From IMG/VR virus record IMGVR_UViG_3300029319_006492: a stretch of 64,000 nucleotides of DNA; one strand, 5' to 3'. The notes under the pieces are model-generated. The model saw only the letters and a list, made by a program, of their open reading frames with translations, searched no databases and was not told the DNA's origin. The stretch is from an uncultured virus (IMG/VR IMGVR_UViG_3300029319_006492). Its lineage: Duplodnaviria; Heunggongvirae; Uroviricota; Caudoviricetes. The translations under genes and the position numbers were made by a program. This document shows positions 954 to 28,357 of this stretch, one piece after another. Every line of letters begins with the position of its first letter. Positions within the stretch are counted from its first letter, which is position 1.

Positions 954-2159
954 ATGCCATTACCATCTAGAAAAGACGGTGAGGACCGTAAAGACTTTAT
1001 GAGTCGTTGCATGAGTGACCCAAAAGTTAGACAGGAGTATAAAGATAGCTCTCAAAGAGTTGCTGTTTGTATTTCAAAAGCAACAGAGGGTCTAGACTAC
1101 GTTCAAGCGGCTGACTTTAAAATGTATTTTGAGTCTTACGGGTCAGAAGAAGAGCTTACAGAAGATAATTATTATGTGCCATCTGAAGAAGACTACGTTT
1201 CTGCTGACGAAGTTTTTTATGAGGAGTCTGAAGTTGAAGAGCTTGACCTATCTGTGGCAAAGCCCGGATTGTGGGAAAACATCAGACGCAAGAAAGAAAG
1301 AATGGGTAAAAATTATAAGCCTGCTAAAACTGAAAAAGAAGGCAGACCTACTCAAGAGCAACTTAAACGCGCTCAATCCGATGATGAATATCTTACTTAC
1401 GCTGATCACGCTGAAGCAGATGAGCCGGGACCAAGAGATCCTCGTAGAACCCCCGCTCCGAAAAAAGATCAGAAAAAAGGGTCTAAAAAGAATAAACCAG
1501 ATAGCGCAAAAGACGGTTCTGGTAAAATCACTTTTAGTAAAGAAGTAACTGCTCAGTTAGCCGCAAAAGTTAAAGAACACAACGCCAAAGGTAAGGGTTC
1601 TAAAGCTACACTGGGTATGCTCAAAGCAGTTTATCGTCGTGGGGCTGGAGCCTTCTCGACTAGCCACGCGCCAAAGATGAGTCGTCATGGCTGGGCTATC
1701 GCTAGGGTCAACGCTTTCTTGAAGCTGCTTAGAAGCGGAAGACCATCCAACCCTAAGTACACTACAGATAACGATCTGTTACCAAAGGGTCATCCTAGAG
1801 CAGGCAAGTCCAAAGGAGGTTTTAAGTATAAAGATCCTAAAACTGGCGAAGTCTACGAGTATGACAGAAAGGGTATCTATAAAAAAGATGGCAGAACTCT
1901 AATTCCGGCTAAGGGGGCTGAGTATCAAGGTAGAAAAGTAAAACTTGGAAAACCTTTCAGAACTCCTAGTGGGCCAAAGAAGTTTAGTGTTTACGTTAAA
2001 AACGAAAAAGGTAATGTTGTCAAGGTTAATTTTGGCGACCCCAATATGAAAATCAAGAAGAATATTCCCGGCAGAAGAAAGAACTTTCGGGCCAGACATA
2101 ACTGTGATAGCCCCGGCCCAAGATGGAAGGCTAGATACTGGTCTTGTAGAGCTTGGTAA
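954..2159 (+). CDS. Modular, highly basic phage protein (possible internal head / DNA-binding protein)
   Basis: AGGAG RBS. A string of short K/R-rich modules resembling small phage proteins (FMSRCM..., GLWENIRRK..., AVYRRGAGAF...WAIARVNAF, VNFGDPNM...NFRARHNC...ARYWSC) plus an acidic linker. Confidence 0.55.
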   Translation: MPLPSRKDGEDRKDFMSRCMSDPKVRQEYKDSSQRVAVCISKATEGLDYVQAADFKMYFESYGSEEELTEDNYYVPSEEDYVSADEVFYEESEVEELDLSVAKPGLWENIRRKKERMGKNYKPAKTEKEGRPTQEQLKRAQSDDEYLTYADHAEADEPGPRDPRRTPAPKKDQKKGSKKNKPDSAKDGSGKITFSKEVTAQLAAKVKEHNAKGKGSKATLGMLKAVYRRGAGAFSTSHAPKMSRHGWAIARVNAFLKLLRSGRPSNPKYTTDNDLLPKGHPRAGKSKGGFKYKDPKTGEVYEYDRKGIYKKDGRTLIPAKGAEYQGRKVKLGKPFRTPSGPKKFSVYVKNEKGNVVKVNFGDPNMKIKKNIPGRRKNFRARHNCDSPGPRWKARYWSCRAW

Positions 2160-2175
2160 TTTTTTGATTTTTCAT

Positions 2176-2204
2176 TTGACTTTTAGACGACACTGTGCTA
2201 TTAT
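2176..2204 (+). promoter_or_regulatory. sigma70-type promoter upstream of the replication operon
   Basis: TTGACT (2176-2181), 17-nt spacer, TGc-TATTAT (extended -10, hexamer 2199-2204) in the intergenic gap. Confidence 0.7.
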
Positions 2205-2277
2205 ATAGTGTAAGCAGTTTTGCGGTTCTGTTTAAAAACCGCTTTATGTTGAATATTATATTGAACAAGGATAGAAA

Positions 2278-3900
2278 ATGGACTGGTTTCCCCTTTGTAA
2301 CTACACGCATTATTCTCTTCAAAAAGCTTTCTCTAAGCCAAAGCAACTCGCAAAAAAGTGTCGCAAAAACTCTTATCCCGCTTGCGGCATAGCTGACTAT
2401 AAGTCTATTTCTGGCGCAGTTGCTTTCTATAACGCCTGTATCTCCAACGATATTAAACCAATCATTGGTTGTTCGTTTGACGGTTTTTCTTTGTTTGCAA
2501 AGAACTATGATGGGTGGCTAGATTTAATTAACATTGTTTCATCTATAGATTCAGATGGCAATTTAGACACATCGCTCCTACTATCTATTTGCAAAAGTAA
2601 AAATCTGATTTCTGTTGCTAAAAAAGAATCAGACTCCCCAATCAAAGGAGGGGACTTCTATGAGAAAACAGAATCCTTTATGGATACTTACTATGTTGAC
2701 AGGTCTCAGGCAGACCTACACAGGATACTTTTATGCTCAAGTATGAAGACAACGCTGCCCAAAGTAAACAAGACTTTGAAGGCTGGCGAGCAAGTGGACA
2801 ATCACGAGTTCTTTATTTGTAATGAGTATTTTCTGAAGAACAAAGTAGAAGTTGGAGAAGTCATCATAAATGATAACAAGCTTGACTTGTTCAGAGAGAT
2901 TTATGATAAGTGCGAAAACTACAATATACTTAACAACCCAATGCTGCCAAACTTTGAAACCCCAAAGGGAAAGTCGCAAAAGGATTATCTTAGATCACTA
3001 GCTCGTCAGGGCTGGAAAAAACTCCTAGCGCATAAGATCACAGATCCAGAACAAAAGCAGGCGTATGGAGACAGATTCAGAAATGAATTTGAAGTAATTG
3101 ATAAGGCCGATCTATTTGGGTATTTTCTTGTTGTGTGGGACATCATCAATCACTGTAAAAAAAGTGGCTGGATGGTTGGCCCCGGTCGTGGCTCTGCGGC
3201 TGGCTGTCTAATTTCATACCTCATCGGCATAACACAGATTGATCCGATTGAATTTGATCTTCTTTTTGAGAGGTTCTACAACTCTGGCAGAAACACTGAA
3301 GACCACATATCTCTACCTGATATTGATATAGATGTGCCGGGGGGTAAAAGGGATGAGATCATCGCCTACCTGAAAGAAAAGTACGGGCAAGACAATGTTA
3401 GTCAGATGTTGACGTTTGGAAGATTGCAGGGTAGAAGCGCCATTAAAGAGGTATTGAGAGTTAATTCCGCCTGTGGCTTTGGGGAAATGAATGAGATAAC
3501 AAAAGCTATACCTGATGAAGCCGCGATCTCTGACCAGTTAGCGGAGATGGATGATGAAGACAGGTCGATTATTAAATGGGCTTTAATGAACAACGCAGAC
3601 GAACTTAGAGACTATTGTTATGTAACAGAATCTGGAGAACTGAAAGGCGATTACTCAGAGTATTTTAGGCAGGCAATCGAAATAGAAGGCACGTTTAAAA
3701 CTCAGGGTAAACATGCGGCTGGTGTTGTTATTTCAGCAGAGCCTCTGTATAGAGTATGCCCTATGGTAAACCCTAAAACCGGATCAGAAAAAATAGCTGG
3801 CCTAGAAATGGCTGATTTAGAAGCGTTGGGACATGTAAAGTTTGATGTTCTAGGCATCAACTTATTAGACAAACTTATGATGATTAAGGAATTAGTATGA
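2278..3900 (+). CDS. dnaE: DNA polymerase III alpha, N-terminal half (degenerate PHP + palm/thumb)
   Basis: GPGRGSAAGCL, LLFERF, PDIDID, GKHAAGVVI, KFDVLG. The ORF ends just after the third catalytic Asp. Confidence 0.92.
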   Translation: MDWFPLCNYTHYSLQKAFSKPKQLAKKCRKNSYPACGIADYKSISGAVAFYNACISNDIKPIIGCSFDGFSLFAKNYDGWLDLINIVSSIDSDGNLDTSLLLSICKSKNLISVAKKESDSPIKGGDFYEKTESFMDTYYVDRSQADLHRILLCSSMKTTLPKVNKTLKAGEQVDNHEFFICNEYFLKNKVEVGEVIINDNKLDLFREIYDKCENYNILNNPMLPNFETPKGKSQKDYLRSLARQGWKKLLAHKITDPEQKQAYGDRFRNEFEVIDKADLFGYFLVVWDIINHCKKSGWMVGPGRGSAAGCLISYLIGITQIDPIEFDLLFERFYNSGRNTEDHISLPDIDIDVPGGKRDEIIAYLKEKYGQDNVSQMLTFGRLQGRSAIKEVLRVNSACGFGEMNEITKAIPDEAAISDQLAEMDDEDRSIIKWALMNNADELRDYCYVTESGELKGDYSEYFRQAIEIEGTFKTQGKHAAGVVISAEPLYRVCPMVNPKTGSEKIAGLEMADLEALGHVKFDVLGINLLDKLMMIKELV

Positions 3901-4571
3901 ACAGAGATATAATTGTATTTGACTTTGAAACTGGTGGTCGAAACCCCATGCGGTGTCAACCGACACAAATAGCAGCGATTGCGTTGGACGGTAGAAACTT
4001 TAAGCTAAAAGGTGAATTTAACAGCATGATGCGACCTATCATTGATGACGAAAAGGCCATCGCTGCTGGAGTTGACCCGCTAGAAGAAGGTGCTTTGAAA
4101 GTCACTGGTCAGACCAGAGAGAAACTTGCCAAGGCACCACTACCAAAAGGTGTATGGAAAAAGTTCTGTGCGTTTGTAGATAAATATAATTGGAAAGGTA
4201 CATCGTTCTTTGCACCTATTCCATGTGGTTTTAACATCCTTGGTTATGATATGCACATCGTAAATAGACTGTGTAAAGAATACGGTCCATACGACGATAA
4301 GCGTGAGTGTCAGAAACTCTTTCATCAGATTTATAAGATTGACGTAATGGACGATGTGTGGTTGTGGACAGAGGGAGATCCAAATGTTAAGTCTATTAGT
4401 ATGGATAGCTTGCGAGAAAGAATGGGACTGTCCAGTGAGAACGCTCACGACGCTCTCCAAGACGTTAAGGATACAGCAAATATCTGGATCAAACTACAAA
4501 AGTCAAGACGAGCAGTTTACCGGAACATGAAGTTTGAAAAGGCATTTGCAGATGGAAAACTCTTCGTATAA
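3897..4571 (+). CDS. dnaQ: DEDDh 3'-5' exonuclease (DnaQ/epsilon-like)
   Basis: ExoI FDFETGG, ExoII GFNILGYD, ExoIII HDALQD. ATGA overlap with dnaE-N. Confidence 0.85.
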   Translation: MNRDIIVFDFETGGRNPMRCQPTQIAAIALDGRNFKLKGEFNSMMRPIIDDEKAIAAGVDPLEEGALKVTGQTREKLAKAPLPKGVWKKFCAFVDKYNWKGTSFFAPIPCGFNILGYDMHIVNRLCKEYGPYDDKRECQKLFHQIYKIDVMDDVWLWTEGDPNVKSISMDSLRERMGLSSENAHDALQDVKDTANIWIKLQKSRRAVYRNMKFEKAFADGKLFV

Positions 4572-4971
4572 GACATGCAATAAGTGTAATCAGAATCTAC
4601 CAGTAGATCGGTTTAGTAAATGTAGCGGTGGTAATTATCTAAGACCTGAGTGTAAAGATTGTAACAACAGACTAAGTAGAGAAAGAAAAGCACTTAGAAA
4701 TAAATATGGCAACCCACCAGAAGATTATCACTGTCCTATCTGCGGAAGAGATGAGACACAAATATCAAGTGGTGGAGGAAAGAAAACAACAAGATGGGTC
4801 ATTGACCATGACCATAAGACTAATACATTTAGAGGATGGCTATGCCACAGTTGTAACATGGGCTTAGGAGCGTTTCTCGACAATGAAGAGATATTGAAGA
4901 GAGCAGTGAAATATTTGAATAGAGACAAACATAAGTCATTACTTAGGAGATTATTATGTTTAGACAAGTAG
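4552..4971 (+). CDS. Endonuclease VII-family (His-Me) nuclease, probable free-standing homing endonuclease
   Basis: N-terminal CxxC...CxxC zinc finger, then CPICG...IDHDH...RGWLCHSCNMGLG. ATG at 4552 is preferred over the TTG at 4534. Confidence 0.85.
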   Translation: MENSSYKTCNKCNQNLPVDRFSKCSGGNYLRPECKDCNNRLSRERKALRNKYGNPPEDYHCPICGRDETQISSGGGKKTTRWVIDHDHKTNTFRGWLCHSCNMGLGAFLDNEEILKRAVKYLNRDKHKSLLRRLLCLDK

Positions 4972-5234
4972 AAAATAAAAACCGCTACAGAACTGCACAG
5001 AATTTTTACTGGTACATTAGAGATAAAGATATTGATTATCTTTTCACTCAAGCTGCACTGGAAGAGGCAGAAAAACGCGCATTAAACAATCCAGAGGATA
5101 TACCAGAATCCAGAGAGCCAGAGCCAGAAAAGGGGCGTTCCTATTTCTTTAACGGTTTACTCACCGGATTGATTGGCGGATTTGTTTGTACGGCAGTTAG
5201 TTACTTTATTGGTCAGTGGATTATTGGAAACTAA
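4956..5234 (+). CDS. Small hypothetical protein with C-terminal membrane anchor
   Basis: AGGAG RBS. Hydrophobic C-terminus FFNGLLTGLIGGFVCTAVSYFIGQWII. Confidence 0.65.
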   Translation: MFRQVENKNRYRTAQNFYWYIRDKDIDYLFTQAALEEAEKRALNNPEDIPESREPEPEKGRSYFFNGLLTGLIGGFVCTAVSYFIGQWIIGN

Positions 5235-6794
5235 ATGGTTGATTACGAAGATAAGAAGACTTGGGAGCTGTTCAAAGAAGGCAAAACCAAGGGTGTCTTT
5301 CAACTAGAGAGCAACCTCGGTAGAAGCTGGTCCAAGAAACTTGCTCCAGATAACCTAGAAGAATTAGCGGCACTGATTGCTATTATTAGGCCCGGATGTC
5401 TAAAGGCTGTTATTGATGGCAAATCCATGACGCAAAGATTTGTAGATAGAAAGCACAAGTTGGAAGAAGTCTCGTATCTGCATGATGCTTTGGAGGACGT
5501 TTTGAAGCCAACGTATGGGGTTCTGGTGTATCAAGAGCAGTCTATGCGTATCGCCCAGAAACTAGCTGGATTTGATCTTAAAAAAGCAGATGACCTACGT
5601 AAAGCAATCGGCAAGAAAAAGGCTGACTTGATGGCTCAGATTAAGCAGGACTTTATAGCTGGCTGTGATACTGTTGGCTTAGTAGATGCTGATTTAGCTA
5701 CAGAGATTTTTGGATGGATCGAGAAGTCTTCTAGGTACTCATTTAATAAATCTCATGCGGTGGCTTACGCTGTAGACTCATATTGGTCTGCATGGTACAA
5801 AGCTAATCACGTCAAAGAGTTCTTCTTGTCGTACCTAAGCTATGCGAATGAAAAGCAAGACCCTCACCAAGAGATTTATGAGCTAGTAAACGAAGCTAAA
5901 CTATTCGGCATAGAAGTAAAGGTTCCTAAACTAAACAACTTCTCTGAGAAGTTTGAGATGTTTGGCGAGGATATCCGATTTGGTGTCCGTGACATCAAGG
6001 GTCTCACCGGGGTAACTGGCACAAAAGTTATAGCGGCTATTAATGAGGCAAGTGAAGAATTGGGTAAATCTGCTGATAAGTTTACTTGGATAGATGTGCT
6101 TATTTATCTAGCACCAAAAATTAACTCTACAGCTTTCAAAGCTCTCGCTTCTATTGGTTTCTTTTCTACTAAAACGACTGGTGTGAGTAGAAATCAAGCT
6201 CTGTACGAGTATCTGATATTTAGAGAACTAACCAAAGCTGAAACGGCATGGGTTCAAGATAATTATAAATCTAAAAAGTGGATTTCATTACAAAAGTGCT
6301 TTCTTGATCTAGCTCCAACAAAAAAGAATGGAGGAGGAACAACGAGAGAACAGAGAAGTCAGATTGTTTACAATGAGGCAGAGCTTCTGGTTAACCCGCC
6401 ATACGAACTTTCAGATGATCCCGCTTGGATTATAGAGCAGGAAACAAAGTTCTTGGGATGCCCAGTATCATTGGCAAAGGTAGAGTCTTCGGATACATCT
6501 TCAGCTAATACTAGCTGTGTAGATGTTTTAAACGGAAAGACAGGCAAAGATATATGTATAGCAGCAAATGTAAACAGGGTAAATAACCACAAAGTCAAAA
6601 AAGGTAAAACAAAAGGTAAAACGATGAGCTTTCTTACAATAGAAGACTCGACGTGTTCCATAGACAATGTTGTTATATTCCCAGAAGCTAGAGAGAAATA
6701 CCAATACGTTTTATATGAGGGTAATAATTTATTACTCTGTGGTGAAATACAGAAAAATAATTCTTTTATAGTAGACAAAGTTCACGAAATCTAG
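5235..6794 (+). CDS. dnaE: DNA polymerase III alpha, C-terminal half (fingers, HhH, OB-fold)
   Basis: GVFQLES, IIRPG, TYGVLVYQEQ, LRKAIGKKK, YSFNKSHAVAY, OB-fold MSFLTIEDST. Confidence 0.92.
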   Translation: MVDYEDKKTWELFKEGKTKGVFQLESNLGRSWSKKLAPDNLEELAALIAIIRPGCLKAVIDGKSMTQRFVDRKHKLEEVSYLHDALEDVLKPTYGVLVYQEQSMRIAQKLAGFDLKKADDLRKAIGKKKADLMAQIKQDFIAGCDTVGLVDADLATEIFGWIEKSSRYSFNKSHAVAYAVDSYWSAWYKANHVKEFFLSYLSYANEKQDPHQEIYELVNEAKLFGIEVKVPKLNNFSEKFEMFGEDIRFGVRDIKGLTGVTGTKVIAAINEASEELGKSADKFTWIDVLIYLAPKINSTAFKALASIGFFSTKTTGVSRNQALYEYLIFRELTKAETAWVQDNYKSKKWISLQKCFLDLAPTKKNGGGTTREQRSQIVYNEAELLVNPPYELSDDPAWIIEQETKFLGCPVSLAKVESSDTSSANTSCVDVLNGKTGKDICIAANVNRVNNHKVKKGKTKGKTMSFLTIEDSTCSIDNVVIFPEAREKYQYVLYEGNNLLLCGEIQKNNSFIVDKVHEI

Positions 6795-6803
6795 ATAAAG
6801 TAA

Positions 6804-6832
6804 TTGGACTTTTCTAGTTTGGATACTACTAT
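6804..6832 (+). promoter_or_regulatory. Probable sigma70-type promoter upstream of ssb and the glycosylation operon
   Basis: TTGGAC, 17-nt spacer, TACTAT, followed by a GGAGG RBS. Shares GACTTTT with the promoter at 2176. Confidence 0.45.
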
Positions 6833-6852
6833 GTAGATATATTGGAGGATAA

Positions 6853-7176
6853 ATGAATAACTGTTTATTTACAGGGTATCTCGACCATGACCCAGAGATA
6901 GAAATTTCTGACGAGAACTCAAGGCAGGCAGAGTTTTGCGAGTTCACTTTAGTCACGTATGAGTACGTGAGAAACAAGAAGGGTGAGAAGAAGAGATATC
7001 CTACGTATTTAAGGTTTAAAGCTTGGGATAGCGGGGCTAGGACTATTGCAAAGCTCGGCAAACAGGGAATGAAAATGACCGTAAACGCTTCAGCTAAAAA
7101 CTTATGTTTAGAAAGCGACACGGAAATTATTTTTAGGGTCAATCAATTCGACTTCGGATGTCTAGACAAGGAATAA
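6853..7176 (+). CDS. ssb: Single-stranded DNA-binding protein (OB-fold, short)
   Basis: MNNCLFTGYL..DPE, FTL, YLRFKAW...A..IAK...G..hTV follow the SSB pattern. Confidence 0.7.
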   Translation: MNNCLFTGYLDHDPEIEISDENSRQAEFCEFTLVTYEYVRNKKGEKKRYPTYLRFKAWDSGARTIAKLGKQGMKMTVNASAKNLCLESDTEIIFRVNQFDFGCLDKE

Positions 7177-7177
7177 A

Positions 7178-8860
7178 ATGAGAAAAAAACGGATACTGTT
7201 TTGCAGTGAAGCAACCTTTTTAAACACGGGGTATGCTACCTATACTAGAGAAATCCTCAACTATCTACATGGAACGGGTAAATACGAAATTGCTGAAATG
7301 GCTTCTTACGGTCAAAGAAACGACCAAAGAGCGGCGGGAATCCCTTGGAAATATTACGGCGTTGTTCCCAATAGTGATTGCGAACCTAAAGCGTCACCAG
7401 AAGAAATGGAAGCATATCAAGCATCAGGGTCTGGTCAGTTCGGAGAGTGGATCTTTGAGCATGTTTGTTTAGACTTCTTGCCAGATGTCGTTTGTGACAT
7501 CAGAGACTTTTGGATGCTCGATTTTGCTGAGAGGTCACCGTTTAGGCCATACTTTAAGTGGGCGATTATGCCAACGGTAGACGCAAGGCCACAAGCCAGA
7601 CAGTGGGTAGCAACATACGCAACAGCAGATGCTTGCTTAACCTACTCAGACTGGGCTGGAGATGTTTTGCAAAATCAGTCAAACGGTAGAATAAACTATC
7701 TCGGTTCGTCACCTCCATCCGCGCATCCGGCTTATAGCCCAGTAGAAGACAAACGCAAACACAAAGAGTCGTTTGGGTTAGATCCAGAATACAAAATTAT
7801 AGGAACAGTTATGCGTAATCAAAGACGTAAGCTGTACCCAGATCTATTTGAAGCATTTAGGAAATTTCTTGATCAAAGCGAAGACAAGAAATACTATCTG
7901 TACTGCCATACTTCCTATCCAGACTTAGGCTGGGATATACCAGAATTAGTACAGGAGTATGGACTTTCTTCGCACGTACTGTTCACTTATATCTGCCCAG
8001 AAACAAAGAACGTGTTTCCTTCACTGTTTAGTGGTGCTGTGGCTCAGTCTCCGTTTACGGGCAAGTGGGGTTCTACATTGTCGAACGTCAAAAATGGAGC
8101 ATCATATGAACAGCTATCCTCTATAATTAACTTGTTTGATTTATACACCCAATACGCCAACTGCGAAGGCTTTGGCCTTCCGTATGTAGAAGCTGCTGCG
8201 TGTGGGGTTCCTGTTTGCGGTACAGATTACTCTGCTATGGAAAGCGAGATGCGCAAGCTAGAGGGTTACCCAATAAAACCGGCAGCACTTTATAAAGAAC
8301 TTGAAACTGGTTGCCTTAGAGCTGTACCCGACAATGATCTAGCGGCTAAATATTTCTTAAACTTCTTTAATTCATCGGAAGAACAGCGGAAAGAAAAGGG
8401 CCAGAGAACCAGAGAATTGTTTCGAGAACATTTCCAGTGGCATAAAAGCGGCAAGAAGTGGGAAGATTATTTTGACAGCATAGAGTTAGAACCCGTAGAA
8501 AAAACTTGGGCGTCTCCACCTAAGATTCATCAACCCGCAGAAAAACCTGATGAAGTAGAGTATACAGTAAATGCAAATAATTTAGCAAAGTGGCTTATCG
8601 TAAACGTGCTGGGAGATCCAAGCAAGCTAGATACTTGGTTTGAAGCAAGAATGACAAGAGATCTTTTGTACAGAAGTGCAACATCCTCTACCGGCGGAAT
8701 GTATTTTAATGAATCATCTGCTGCATTTGATGGTATTAATCACAGAGTTGAATTTAATTTTGACATTGCGTATGAACAAATGAAAAACTTGTGCATCAGA
8801 AGAAACAACTGGGAAGAAAAAAGGATTCAAACTATGCAACAAAGGGGGTTGATACAGTGA
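7178..8860 (+). CDS. GT-B glycosyltransferase (GT4-like) with C-terminal extension
   Basis: TGYATY, RNQRRK, EGFGLPYVEAAACGVPV (EX7E motif). Confidence 0.85.
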   Translation: MRKKRILFCSEATFLNTGYATYTREILNYLHGTGKYEIAEMASYGQRNDQRAAGIPWKYYGVVPNSDCEPKASPEEMEAYQASGSGQFGEWIFEHVCLDFLPDVVCDIRDFWMLDFAERSPFRPYFKWAIMPTVDARPQARQWVATYATADACLTYSDWAGDVLQNQSNGRINYLGSSPPSAHPAYSPVEDKRKHKESFGLDPEYKIIGTVMRNQRRKLYPDLFEAFRKFLDQSEDKKYYLYCHTSYPDLGWDIPELVQEYGLSSHVLFTYICPETKNVFPSLFSGAVAQSPFTGKWGSTLSNVKNGASYEQLSSIINLFDLYTQYANCEGFGLPYVEAAACGVPVCGTDYSAMESEMRKLEGYPIKPAALYKELETGCLRAVPDNDLAAKYFLNFFNSSEEQRKEKGQRTRELFREHFQWHKSGKKWEDYFDSIELEPVEKTWASPPKIHQPAEKPDEVEYTVNANNLAKWLIVNVLGDPSKLDTWFEARMTRDLLYRSATSSTGGMYFNESSAAFDGINHRVEFNFDIAYEQMKNLCIRRNNWEEKRIQTMQQRGLIQ

Positions 8861-27592: not shown

Positions 27593-28357
27593 ATGGACAA
27601 GTTTGACCAAAAAGTCATAAATATGTACAATAAGGAAAATAAAAGCACTTATGAAATAGCTAAGGTACTCAATACATACCCCAATAAGATCAGGCGTACA
27701 TTGATTAAGCATGGGCAAAAACTAAAAGACAAAAGTGAAGCTCAGAAAACAGCGCTTGCCGAAGGCAGAAGCTCCCACCCGACTATGGGTAGAAAAAGAT
27801 CCAAAGATGAAAGAGTGAAGATCAGTAGCAGTTTGGTGGATTACTGGGGCGAGATGACAGAGAAAGAGAGAAAAAGAAGGTCAAAAATAGCAAAGAAGAA
27901 CTGGAACTCTATGACCTCAGAGCAAAAGGAGACAATGAGGTCTAAGGGTATTGCTGCAATTCAATTAGCGGCAACTAACGGCTCGAAACTAGAACAGTTT
28001 GTAAAGAATTCGTTGTCCAAACATGGCTATTCGTGCGAGTCACACGTAATGATTATTCCTTCAGAAAATCTAGAAATAGACTTGTATGTTAGAGATTTAA
28101 AGACTATAATAGAAGTAGATGGCCCTTCTCATTTTCTACCTATTTGGGGTGAAGAGAAACTACAGAAGCAGATAAATGCAGACTTAAGGAAAAGCGGTAC
28201 GCTTCTAAGTAAAGGGTACGTAGTTATAAGAATAAAATCACTAGGTCAAGAGTCCCTATCTAAAAGAGAGGAGCTATTGAACTCGGTGGTTGAAAATCTT
28301 GATAGTATAAAGAATAAATTTCCACCAAGATCAAAACGTTTTATAGAGGTTGAATAA
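27593..28357 (+). CDS. HTH + NUMOD3-like + Vsr/DUF559-type endonuclease (homing-endonuclease-like)
   Basis: STYEIAKVLNTYPNKIRRTL (HTH), GRKRSKDERVKISSSL (NUMOD3-like), SKLE...EIDLY...IIEVDGPSH...GYVVIRI. Confidence 0.75.
   Translation: MDKFDQKVINMYNKENKSTYEIAKVLNTYPNKIRRTLIKHGQKLKDKSEAQKTALAEGRSSHPTMGRKRSKDERVKISSSLVDYWGEMTEKERKRRSKIAKKNWNSMTSEQKETMRSKGIAAIQLAATNGSKLEQFVKNSLSKHGYSCESHVMIIPSENLEIDLYVRDLKTIIEVDGPSHFLPIWGEEKLQKQINADLRKSGTLLSKGYVVIRIKSLGQESLSKREELLNSVVENLDSIKNKFPPRSKRFIEVE

Follow-up and report, generated by a model that had tools for sequence, protein, structure and literature searches.

A three-gene DNA polymerase III locus with dnaQ between the two halves of dnaE in an abundant lineage of uncultured aquatic phages

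C-family DNA polymerases are the replicases of bacteria and, to our knowledge, are regarded as single chains except in cases spliced by inteins. The stretch of DNA analysed here (‘the window’, 64,000 nucleotides of the uncultured caudoviricete virus record IMGVR_UViG_3300029319_006492 of IMG/VR) carries dnaE, the gene for the DNA polymerase III (Pol III) alpha subunit, in two pieces with a gene for a DnaQ-like proofreading exonuclease at the break, raising the question of how such a divided polymerase is put together and how the division arose. The locus is a conserved, intein-free three-gene Pol III replicase locus belonging to uncultured aquatic (marine) phages whose lineage is very abundant, and the sequence comparisons below suggest that the two halves most probably reassemble non-covalently, without splicing, into a Pol III alpha-like polymerase. 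Its component proteins are ordinary DnaE and DnaQ; it is the arrangement that differs from what is known.

Two halves of DnaE and the exonuclease gene between them

The open reading frame (ORF) listing gave five gapless plus-strand ORFs of 540, 224, 145, 92 and 519 amino acids across 2278-6794, the first and last of which encode the N- and C-terminal halves of DnaE (Table 1). The chain is broken by a stop at 3898-3900 and resumes from a new start at 5235, an interruption kept in relatives. The N-half protein (2278-3900) ends in ...VKFDVLGINLLDKLMMIKELV before its stop and the C-half protein (5235-6794) starts MVDYEDKKTWELFKEGKTKGVFQLES. Pfam searches of the N-half returned PHP (PF02811, 5e-13, matching residues 10-93 only) and DNA_pol3_alpha (PF07733, profile positions 2-260 of 260), and those of the C-half DNA_pol3_finger (PF17657, profile positions 25-163 of 166). 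On alignment to E. coli alpha, N-half residues 206-532 matched alpha 261-564, with the N-half also covering alpha 13-72, and C-half residues 3-272 matched alpha 590-852, with a weak OB alignment to 1010-1055. Only a loop of ~15-17 residues (E. coli alpha ~573-589) was without a counterpart, and the split position is this one surface loop; together the two halves total 1059 amino acids compared with 1160 for E. coli alpha. Counted along the alignment, the N-half counterparts of E. coli D401, D403 and D555, which we take from the E. coli structure literature to be the catalytic aspartates, are D348, D350 and D523, and all three are invariant in 22 relatives. The original prediction, made from the sequence of the window, had quoted the same termini, letter for letter, and had described the halves as consecutive DnaE segments lacking only a short linker, with all three catalytic aspartates in the N-half and the fingers in the C-half, a description that the alignments and Pfam matches bear out at each point. 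Of the features that mark a DnaE-type polymerase, the polymerase core, the fingers and the N-terminal PHP region were found; a single continuous polypeptide was not.

DnaQ is the sole conserved occupant of the gap between the halves. It matches PF00929 (RNase_T), its DEDDh residues (D9, E11, D118, H184 and D189) show no variation across 23 sequences, with Exo I, II and III all recognisable, and a conserved C-terminal tail (KFEKAFADG-like) is likewise found in 23 sequences. It is also the best conserved of the three proteins, being 76-96% identical to its relatives compared with 66-85% for the N-half and 67-81% for the C-half. The DnaQ family is compact: of 1.84 billion clusters at 50% identity, 594 match at E<=0.001. 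Its closest cultured relatives are from Bacteroides phages such as SJC03 (30%), in which, as the only such neighbourhood inspected, the DnaQ-like gene adjoins a terminase-like gene and is not within dnaE. The best matches to either polymerase half among cultured phages are ~31% identical and one-piece.

In the mechanism that we propose, the three co-oriented, tightly packed genes would probably be expressed from one transcript, although promoter and terminator evidence is weak: the promoter-like site lies within the 118 nt that precede the N-half gene and is one of a total of 16 such sites, a number not above that in shuffled sequence (12.5 +/- 3.3), and no plus-strand terminator-like site was found between 2278 and 6794. 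The N-half stop and DnaQ start overlap as ATGA. The N-half chain would contribute PHP, palm and thumb with the catalytic aspartate triad, the C-half chain would contribute the fingers, the HhH clamp-side domain and OB, and the two would most likely join non-covalently across the palm-fingers interface, because this two-gene polymerase has nothing to splice its halves. The DnaQ-type DEDDh exonuclease would most likely be the proofreader of the split polymerase, with the endonuclease gene and the 92-amino-acid ORF that are inserted between dnaQ and the C-half presumably selfish passengers and not parts of the enzyme. A complex prediction with the N-half, residues 1-230 of the C-half and DnaQ as partner scored 0.00 against a mark of 0.32 and, being without controls, is evidence neither way.

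Table 1. Features of the split dnaE locus and its immediate surroundings (positions in the window).
Feature	Position	Strand	Evidence
dnaE N-half, 540 amino acids: PHP, palm, thumb	2278..3900	+	PF07733 4e-69; alignment to E. coli alpha
DnaQ-like DEDDh 3'-5' exonuclease, 224 amino acids	3897..4571	+	RNase_T 2e-11; phrog_192 2e-26
Endonuclease VII/HNH-type gene, predicted free-standing homing endonuclease	4552..4971	+	PF02945 2e-15; phrog_2633 2e-27
92-amino-acid ORF with hydrophobic C-terminus, accompanies endonuclease gene	4956..5234	+	without Pfam or PHROG family
dnaE C-half, 519 amino acids: fingers, HhH, OB	5235..6794	+	PF17657 2e-47; HhH and OB below cut-off; alignment to E. coli alpha
SSB-like gene, conserved neighbour downstream	6853..7176	+	SSB 1e-7; syntenic in relatives
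Promoter-like site upstream of N-half (weak)	2176..2204	+	TTGACT-17-TATTAT, 10/12 matches with TG

Conservation and history of the split

With the N-half as query, a scan of viral contigs returned 22 loci, 66-85% identical, in which DnaQ came next in every one of the 20 loci extending past the N-half and the C-half came next in all 18 extending past DnaQ; an SSB gene and a gene for a 560-amino-acid glycosyltransferase lie downstream in relatives. In all relatives compared the N-half ends with LLDKLMxIKEL plus 1-4 residues and the C-half starts 1-6 residues ahead of DYxDxKTW, the cut position being the same to within a few residues, and the breakpoint is conserved in the same loop across the wider lineage. 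A second scan gave 43 loci, comprising 27 with the order N-half, DnaQ, C-half, six that were one-piece and 10 ended by contig ends, and the 27 distant split loci (35-56% identity) were without exception of this order. The N-half family as a whole counts 6055 proteins of 297-945 amino acids (E<=1e-10), the best 120 of which are all 517-548 amino acids long.

Some distant loci carry additional material. Most of the 27 more distant split loci have a Cys-bearing ORF of 58-80 amino acids between the N-half and DnaQ (L047 7868-8053, L051 7896-8111, L058 7934-8128 and others), and in several distant split relatives the C-half opens with an extra CGC-containing segment; neither is found in the clade of the window, and no relative of the small ORF was detectable in the window itself. 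In L072 (7890-9722) the N-half and DnaQ are 1.8 kb apart, with several ORFs in the interval; one of these ORFs, of 264 amino acids, is uracil-DNA glycosylase-like by eye.

One-piece relatives, found by a search among longer proteins, are 43-54% identical, and some are 1052 amino acids long, almost exactly the N-half plus the C-half. In L041-L046 DnaQ is encoded immediately upstream of an unsplit dnaE within the same neighbourhood (order DnaQ, DnaE and, further on, glycosyltransferase), and in L084, of a second one-piece group, the order is homing-endonuclease gene, DnaE, glycosyltransferase, DnaQ. Scans of viral contigs found no loci for the closest one-piece proteins (P0140-P0142), and an AlphaFold2 model of P0142 from a 3-row alignment had a mean predicted local distance difference test (pLDDT) value of 33.9 and was unusable. 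In order to place the two forms we used a tree of 53 hand-chosen rows (19 split, 28 one-piece phage-type and six bacterial outgroup), from which near-duplicate, truncated and intein-bearing rows were excluded. Split forms were basal and the one-piece forms fell into two separate nested clades, with at least three state changes, a picture that was the same under a site-heterogeneous model with 36 rows. Approximately unbiased (AU) tests rejected monophyly both of the split forms (p 3e-49) and of the one-piece phage forms (p 1.7e-4). This leaves repeated splitting of one loop around dnaQ, many times over, or two re-fusions of an old split; re-fusion is the simpler reading, and the differing dnaQ positions in the one-piece groups agree with two independent events. 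We therefore put forward, tentatively and at somewhat less than even odds, that the replicase has toggled between states, the split with internal dnaQ being ancestral to every member sampled and at least two in-frame re-fusions having moved dnaQ, each to a different side, perhaps driven by Endonuclease VII-type genes.

A gene of this type is present in the window. The original prediction had three ORFs filling the 1.33-kb gap, which they do, overlapping and all on the plus strand; its treatment of the gap as one unit did not survive, since only DnaQ is conserved and the other two ORFs form a sporadic homing-endonuclease cassette. The 145-amino-acid ORF, whose Endonuclease_7/HNH family membership had gone unrecognised there, is open from TTG 4534 to 4971 with a likely start at ATG 4552, within the last dnaQ codons, which gives a protein of 139 amino acids; this ATG (GAT GGA in dnaQ) also occurs in five endonuclease-free relatives and is not diagnostic. 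For the 92-amino-acid ORF no Pfam or PHROG family was found and its own scan returned no relative, Atlas matches being only at 0.84; a single relative was seen, in L034 (55%), likewise between the endonuclease gene and the C-half. Both ORFs are sporadic later arrivals at the locus. Among the 18 relatives that the N-half scan recovered, one has the endonuclease gene (L005, 58% identity), and an endonuclease-based search gave 17 loci, 16 of which were without DnaE or DnaQ nearby. L034 repeats the order of the window (N-half, DnaQ, endonuclease, 92-amino-acid ORF, C-half), with 45% and 55% identity for the endonuclease and the 92-amino-acid ORF respectively. By our own reading of translations around five endonuclease loci (L024, L025, L026, L028 and L031), the closest relatives (53-56% identity) adjoin clamp-loader-like genes and others lie upstream of a ribonucleotide reductase-like gene and a PolA-like gene. 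Because the gene is sporadic among close relatives and present in unrelated genomic contexts, its predicted behaviour is that of a free-standing homing endonuclease.

Could this endonuclease itself have caused the split, in a recent local event of the kind proposed for mobE and nrdA of phage Aeh1? The gene does lie in the gap, genes of its family are found at or near the locus in L005, L034, L079, L083 and L084, and endonuclease insertions that split phage genes are documented (Edgell et al., 2010, PMC2988022). However, of the 18 close relatives from the N-half scan, 17 lack an endonuclease gene and yet have the break at the same place, the endonuclease occupies the dnaQ/C-half spacer and not a break that it made, and the split forms are basal in the rooted trees, so we consider this origin improbable, whilst an ancient endonuclease-driven event could conceivably have first brought dnaQ into dnaE. 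The dnaQ stop and the C-half ATG, which in endonuclease-free relatives are mostly 9-23 nt apart or overlapping, directly flank the cassette; its junctions are clean, with no recoded duplicate or scar seen at the endonuclease insertion.

The dnaQ/C-half junction seems to be an insertion hot spot. L011 (6944-7432) has at this same junction a 162-amino-acid ORF that lacks a Pfam family and is different from the endonuclease. The DnaQ of L034 (3346-4017) is 96% identical to that of the window, compared with only 70-72% for the polymerase halves, and both loci carry the cassette; co-conversion of flanking DNA during homing could account for this high identity.

Selection, sole polymerase and splicing

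Across 17 sequences (136 pairs) the median proportion of non-synonymous differences (pN) was 0.172 for the N-half, 0.056 for DnaQ and 0.172 for the C-half, with the proportion of synonymous differences (pS) saturated at ~0.83, giving pN/pS ratios of 0.21, 0.07 and 0.21 respectively. All three genes are under purifying selection, the halves being equally constrained and the exonuclease more so, and the relaxed selection on either half that the original prediction had named as a result that would count against it was not found. Nor was an intact polymerase found elsewhere: the records of four relatives held one PF07733 match each and no PF00136 (PolB) or PF00476 (PolA), one of the four, at 166,833 bp, being rated 100% complete, and no second polymerase copy was found within the window.

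These data bear on whether the ORFs might be remnants or accessory factors that form no working polymerase, the phage being replicated by host Pol III. In favour of this, the polymerase activity and the binding of the halves are read from sequence and the PHP match is short. Against it stand the equal and strong constraint on both halves, the invariance of the catalytic aspartates and of the DnaQ DEDDh residues, the persistence of the layout down to ~35% identity with an SSB gene always following, and the existence of thousands of distinct copies, and we regard it as unlikely, marginally more so than a recent endonuclease-made split.

A further explanation is that the halves are rejoined covalently, by protein trans-splicing, an intron containing dnaQ, ribosomal bypass, frameshift or read-through, to give a one-chain enzyme. 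There is precedent in the dnaE of cyanobacteria and in the ‘fractured’ dnaE genes of marine metagenomes, the pieces of which are rejoined by split inteins (PMC2677866), and the phage DnaE family hosts inteins elsewhere (PF14890 or PF14528). In this locus, however, Pfam searches of the window proteins found no intein, Hint or LAGLIDADG family at E<=0.01, the N-half runs 8 residues beyond the end of its alignment to E. coli alpha, and the C-half, which starts MVDY, aligns from residue 3; there is no room for an intein because neither half has spare residues at its cut end, no unaligned tail exceeding 8 residues. The absence of split-intein blocks noted in the original prediction is thus upheld, and no intron was found either: an Rfam search over 2000-7300 at E<=1 gave none, its sole match being RybB at a chance-level E of 0.84, and none was found at gathering score in eight related loci. 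The gap in most relatives is made up of the DnaQ ORF plus -41 to 23 nt, and DnaQ is itself conserved with its catalytic residues intact. The frame offsets between N-half and DnaQ and between DnaQ and C-half differ among relatives, so there is no conserved frameshift or read-through geometry. Contigs of run X20, guessed to be RNA, cover only 3903-3934, 4081-4311 and 5222-5378, too little to inform on splicing or expression. We consider covalent rejoining very unlikely.

The inteins of the phage DnaE family (PF14890, PF14528) occur in P0150, P0162, P0166-P0168, P0172, P0173 and others, and in L046 at 2626-3767. Their site corresponds to about residue 275-305 of the N-half, and both one-piece proteins and proteins of N-half length carry them.

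That a misassembly or sequencing error made a false stop and insertion has a negligible chance of being correct, as contigs of independent runs from other studies bridge every junction (X3 contigs share the structure over 2000-4540 and 4511-7300, with 9 and 17 differences respectively, and X19 contigs covering 3565-3950 and 4938-5830 bridge the N-half/DnaQ and 92-amino-acid ORF/C-half junctions) and dozens of independent viral contigs have the same layout. Contig joints in X1 and X3 were considered as candidate deletions or splices and rejected, having sides of <33 letters at 90% likeness, and are read as pieces of related strains.

Non-covalent assembly of the two chains is the reading that we retain, and several points weigh against it or against the history proposed above. 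The locus is known here from its genes, from which the assembly and activity of the polymerase are inferred. Two of the C-half domains scored below cut-off, HHH_6 with 22.1 bits (cut-off 25.6) and OB with 19.1 bits (cut-off 27). The constraint is expressed as pN/pS and not as a proper dN/dS because dS is saturated (pS >=0.72 in all half pairs), and the sole-polymerase claim draws on the records of relatives, only one of which is rated complete. The trees came from short searches with a distant bacterial root (~30% identity), and the first of them gave long-branch warnings. The groupings put to the AU tests were defined once a tree had been seen, and for 24 of the 28 one-piece rows of the ingroup that state was taken from length and Pfam lists alone.

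Neighbourhood, significance and comparison with known systems

Upstream of the polymerase (954-2159, plus strand) lies a gene for a 401-amino-acid lysine-rich protein with a weak DUF5824 match and, at its C-terminus, a phrog_7595 match; in many relatives its middle is deleted or replaced, with both ends retained. Downstream, 7178-29124 (plus strand) is densely filled by ~25 genes, which encode glycosyltransferases, nucleotide-sugar epimerases, aminotransferases, methyltransferases and one radical-SAM protein. Inside this sugar cluster a 254-amino-acid ORF (27593-28357, plus strand; HNH endonuclease phrog_559, 5e-13) may be a second selfish nuclease gene. Four consecutive giant ORFs of 1444, 1742, 4297 and 2266 amino acids on the minus strand (30563-62487) presumably encode structural or fibre proteins. 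N-half relatives were also found in metagenome-assembled genomes (L085-L101, 17 loci, one on a 152,655-bp contig) assigned to SAR202, Flavobacteriales, Chitinophagia, Terriglobia, Promethearchaeota and others, and these loci with their discordant taxa are probably phage contigs mis-binned into cellular genomes.

If the reading of two non-covalently joined chains is correct, abundant aquatic phages replicate with the palm and fingers of their polymerase on separate chains and the proofreader gene between them. The locus would offer engineers a split site found in nature, at which palm-fingers communication could also be studied structurally, together with a test case of whether gene order reflects the order of replicase assembly, and the fused relatives would make the fission and re-fusion of an essential enzyme's gene tractable. 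Were the toggling also true, a C-family replicase would tolerate fission of its palm-fingers loop, the fission would be reversible and the locus would be a natural experiment. As regards annotation, virome calls of ‘DNA polymerase III alpha’ at half length are not fragments.

In the dnaE of cyanobacteria and the ‘fractured’ dnaE of marine metagenomes (Dassa et al., 2009, PMC2677866), the pieces are likewise two genes, in the fractured case with a free-standing endonuclease gene between them as here, but they are broken at other insertion points and spliced by split inteins, whereas the constant gap gene of the phage locus is dnaQ. Split phage genes free of inteins are also on record, namely gp43A/43B (PolB) of Aeromonas phages 25 and 44RR, NrdA of Aeh1 around mobE and gp39/gp60 of T4, all of them essential enzymes described by Edgell et al. 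(2010, PMC2988022) as two adjacent polypeptides that reassemble unspliced, the break having a homing-endonuclease gene in it or close by. The phage polymerase considered here differs in belonging to family C, in having a break that is lineage-wide and old and not limited to a few phages, and in carrying the proofreader gene in the gap. For group 2.2 jumbo phages a minimal, intein-free split Pol III alpha of two standalone proteins has been predicted (Iyer et al., 2021, PMC7824862), which comprises the catalytic module only, is encoded at distant loci and occurs alongside a family B polymerase; by comparison, the present locus appears to have the full domain set, its halves are 1.3 kb apart around dnaQ, and the records of four relatives lack PF00136. 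Phages go unmentioned in a survey of Pol III alpha from bacteria, in which fragments were either joined or discarded (PMC3919608). We found no description of a full-length, dnaQ-centred Pol III split in the literature searched, most subscription journals and supplements being outside its scope.

PolC of Firmicutes is a C-family polymerase with a DnaQ-like exonuclease as an in-frame domain inside PHP, all in a single chain, whereas the phage exonuclease is a separate gene between palm and fingers. The single-chain DnaE of E. coli (PDB 2HNH, 5FKU) and T. aquaticus (2HPI) has the same domain order of PHP, palm, thumb and fingers, with HhH and OB after them, the two domains for which the phage matches score below cut-off; Pol III of these bacteria likewise has a separate DEDDh exonuclease and the same catalytic aspartate positions. 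Compared with these single-chain enzymes, the phage chain is cut at loop ~573-589, with the exonuclease gene inside the cut.

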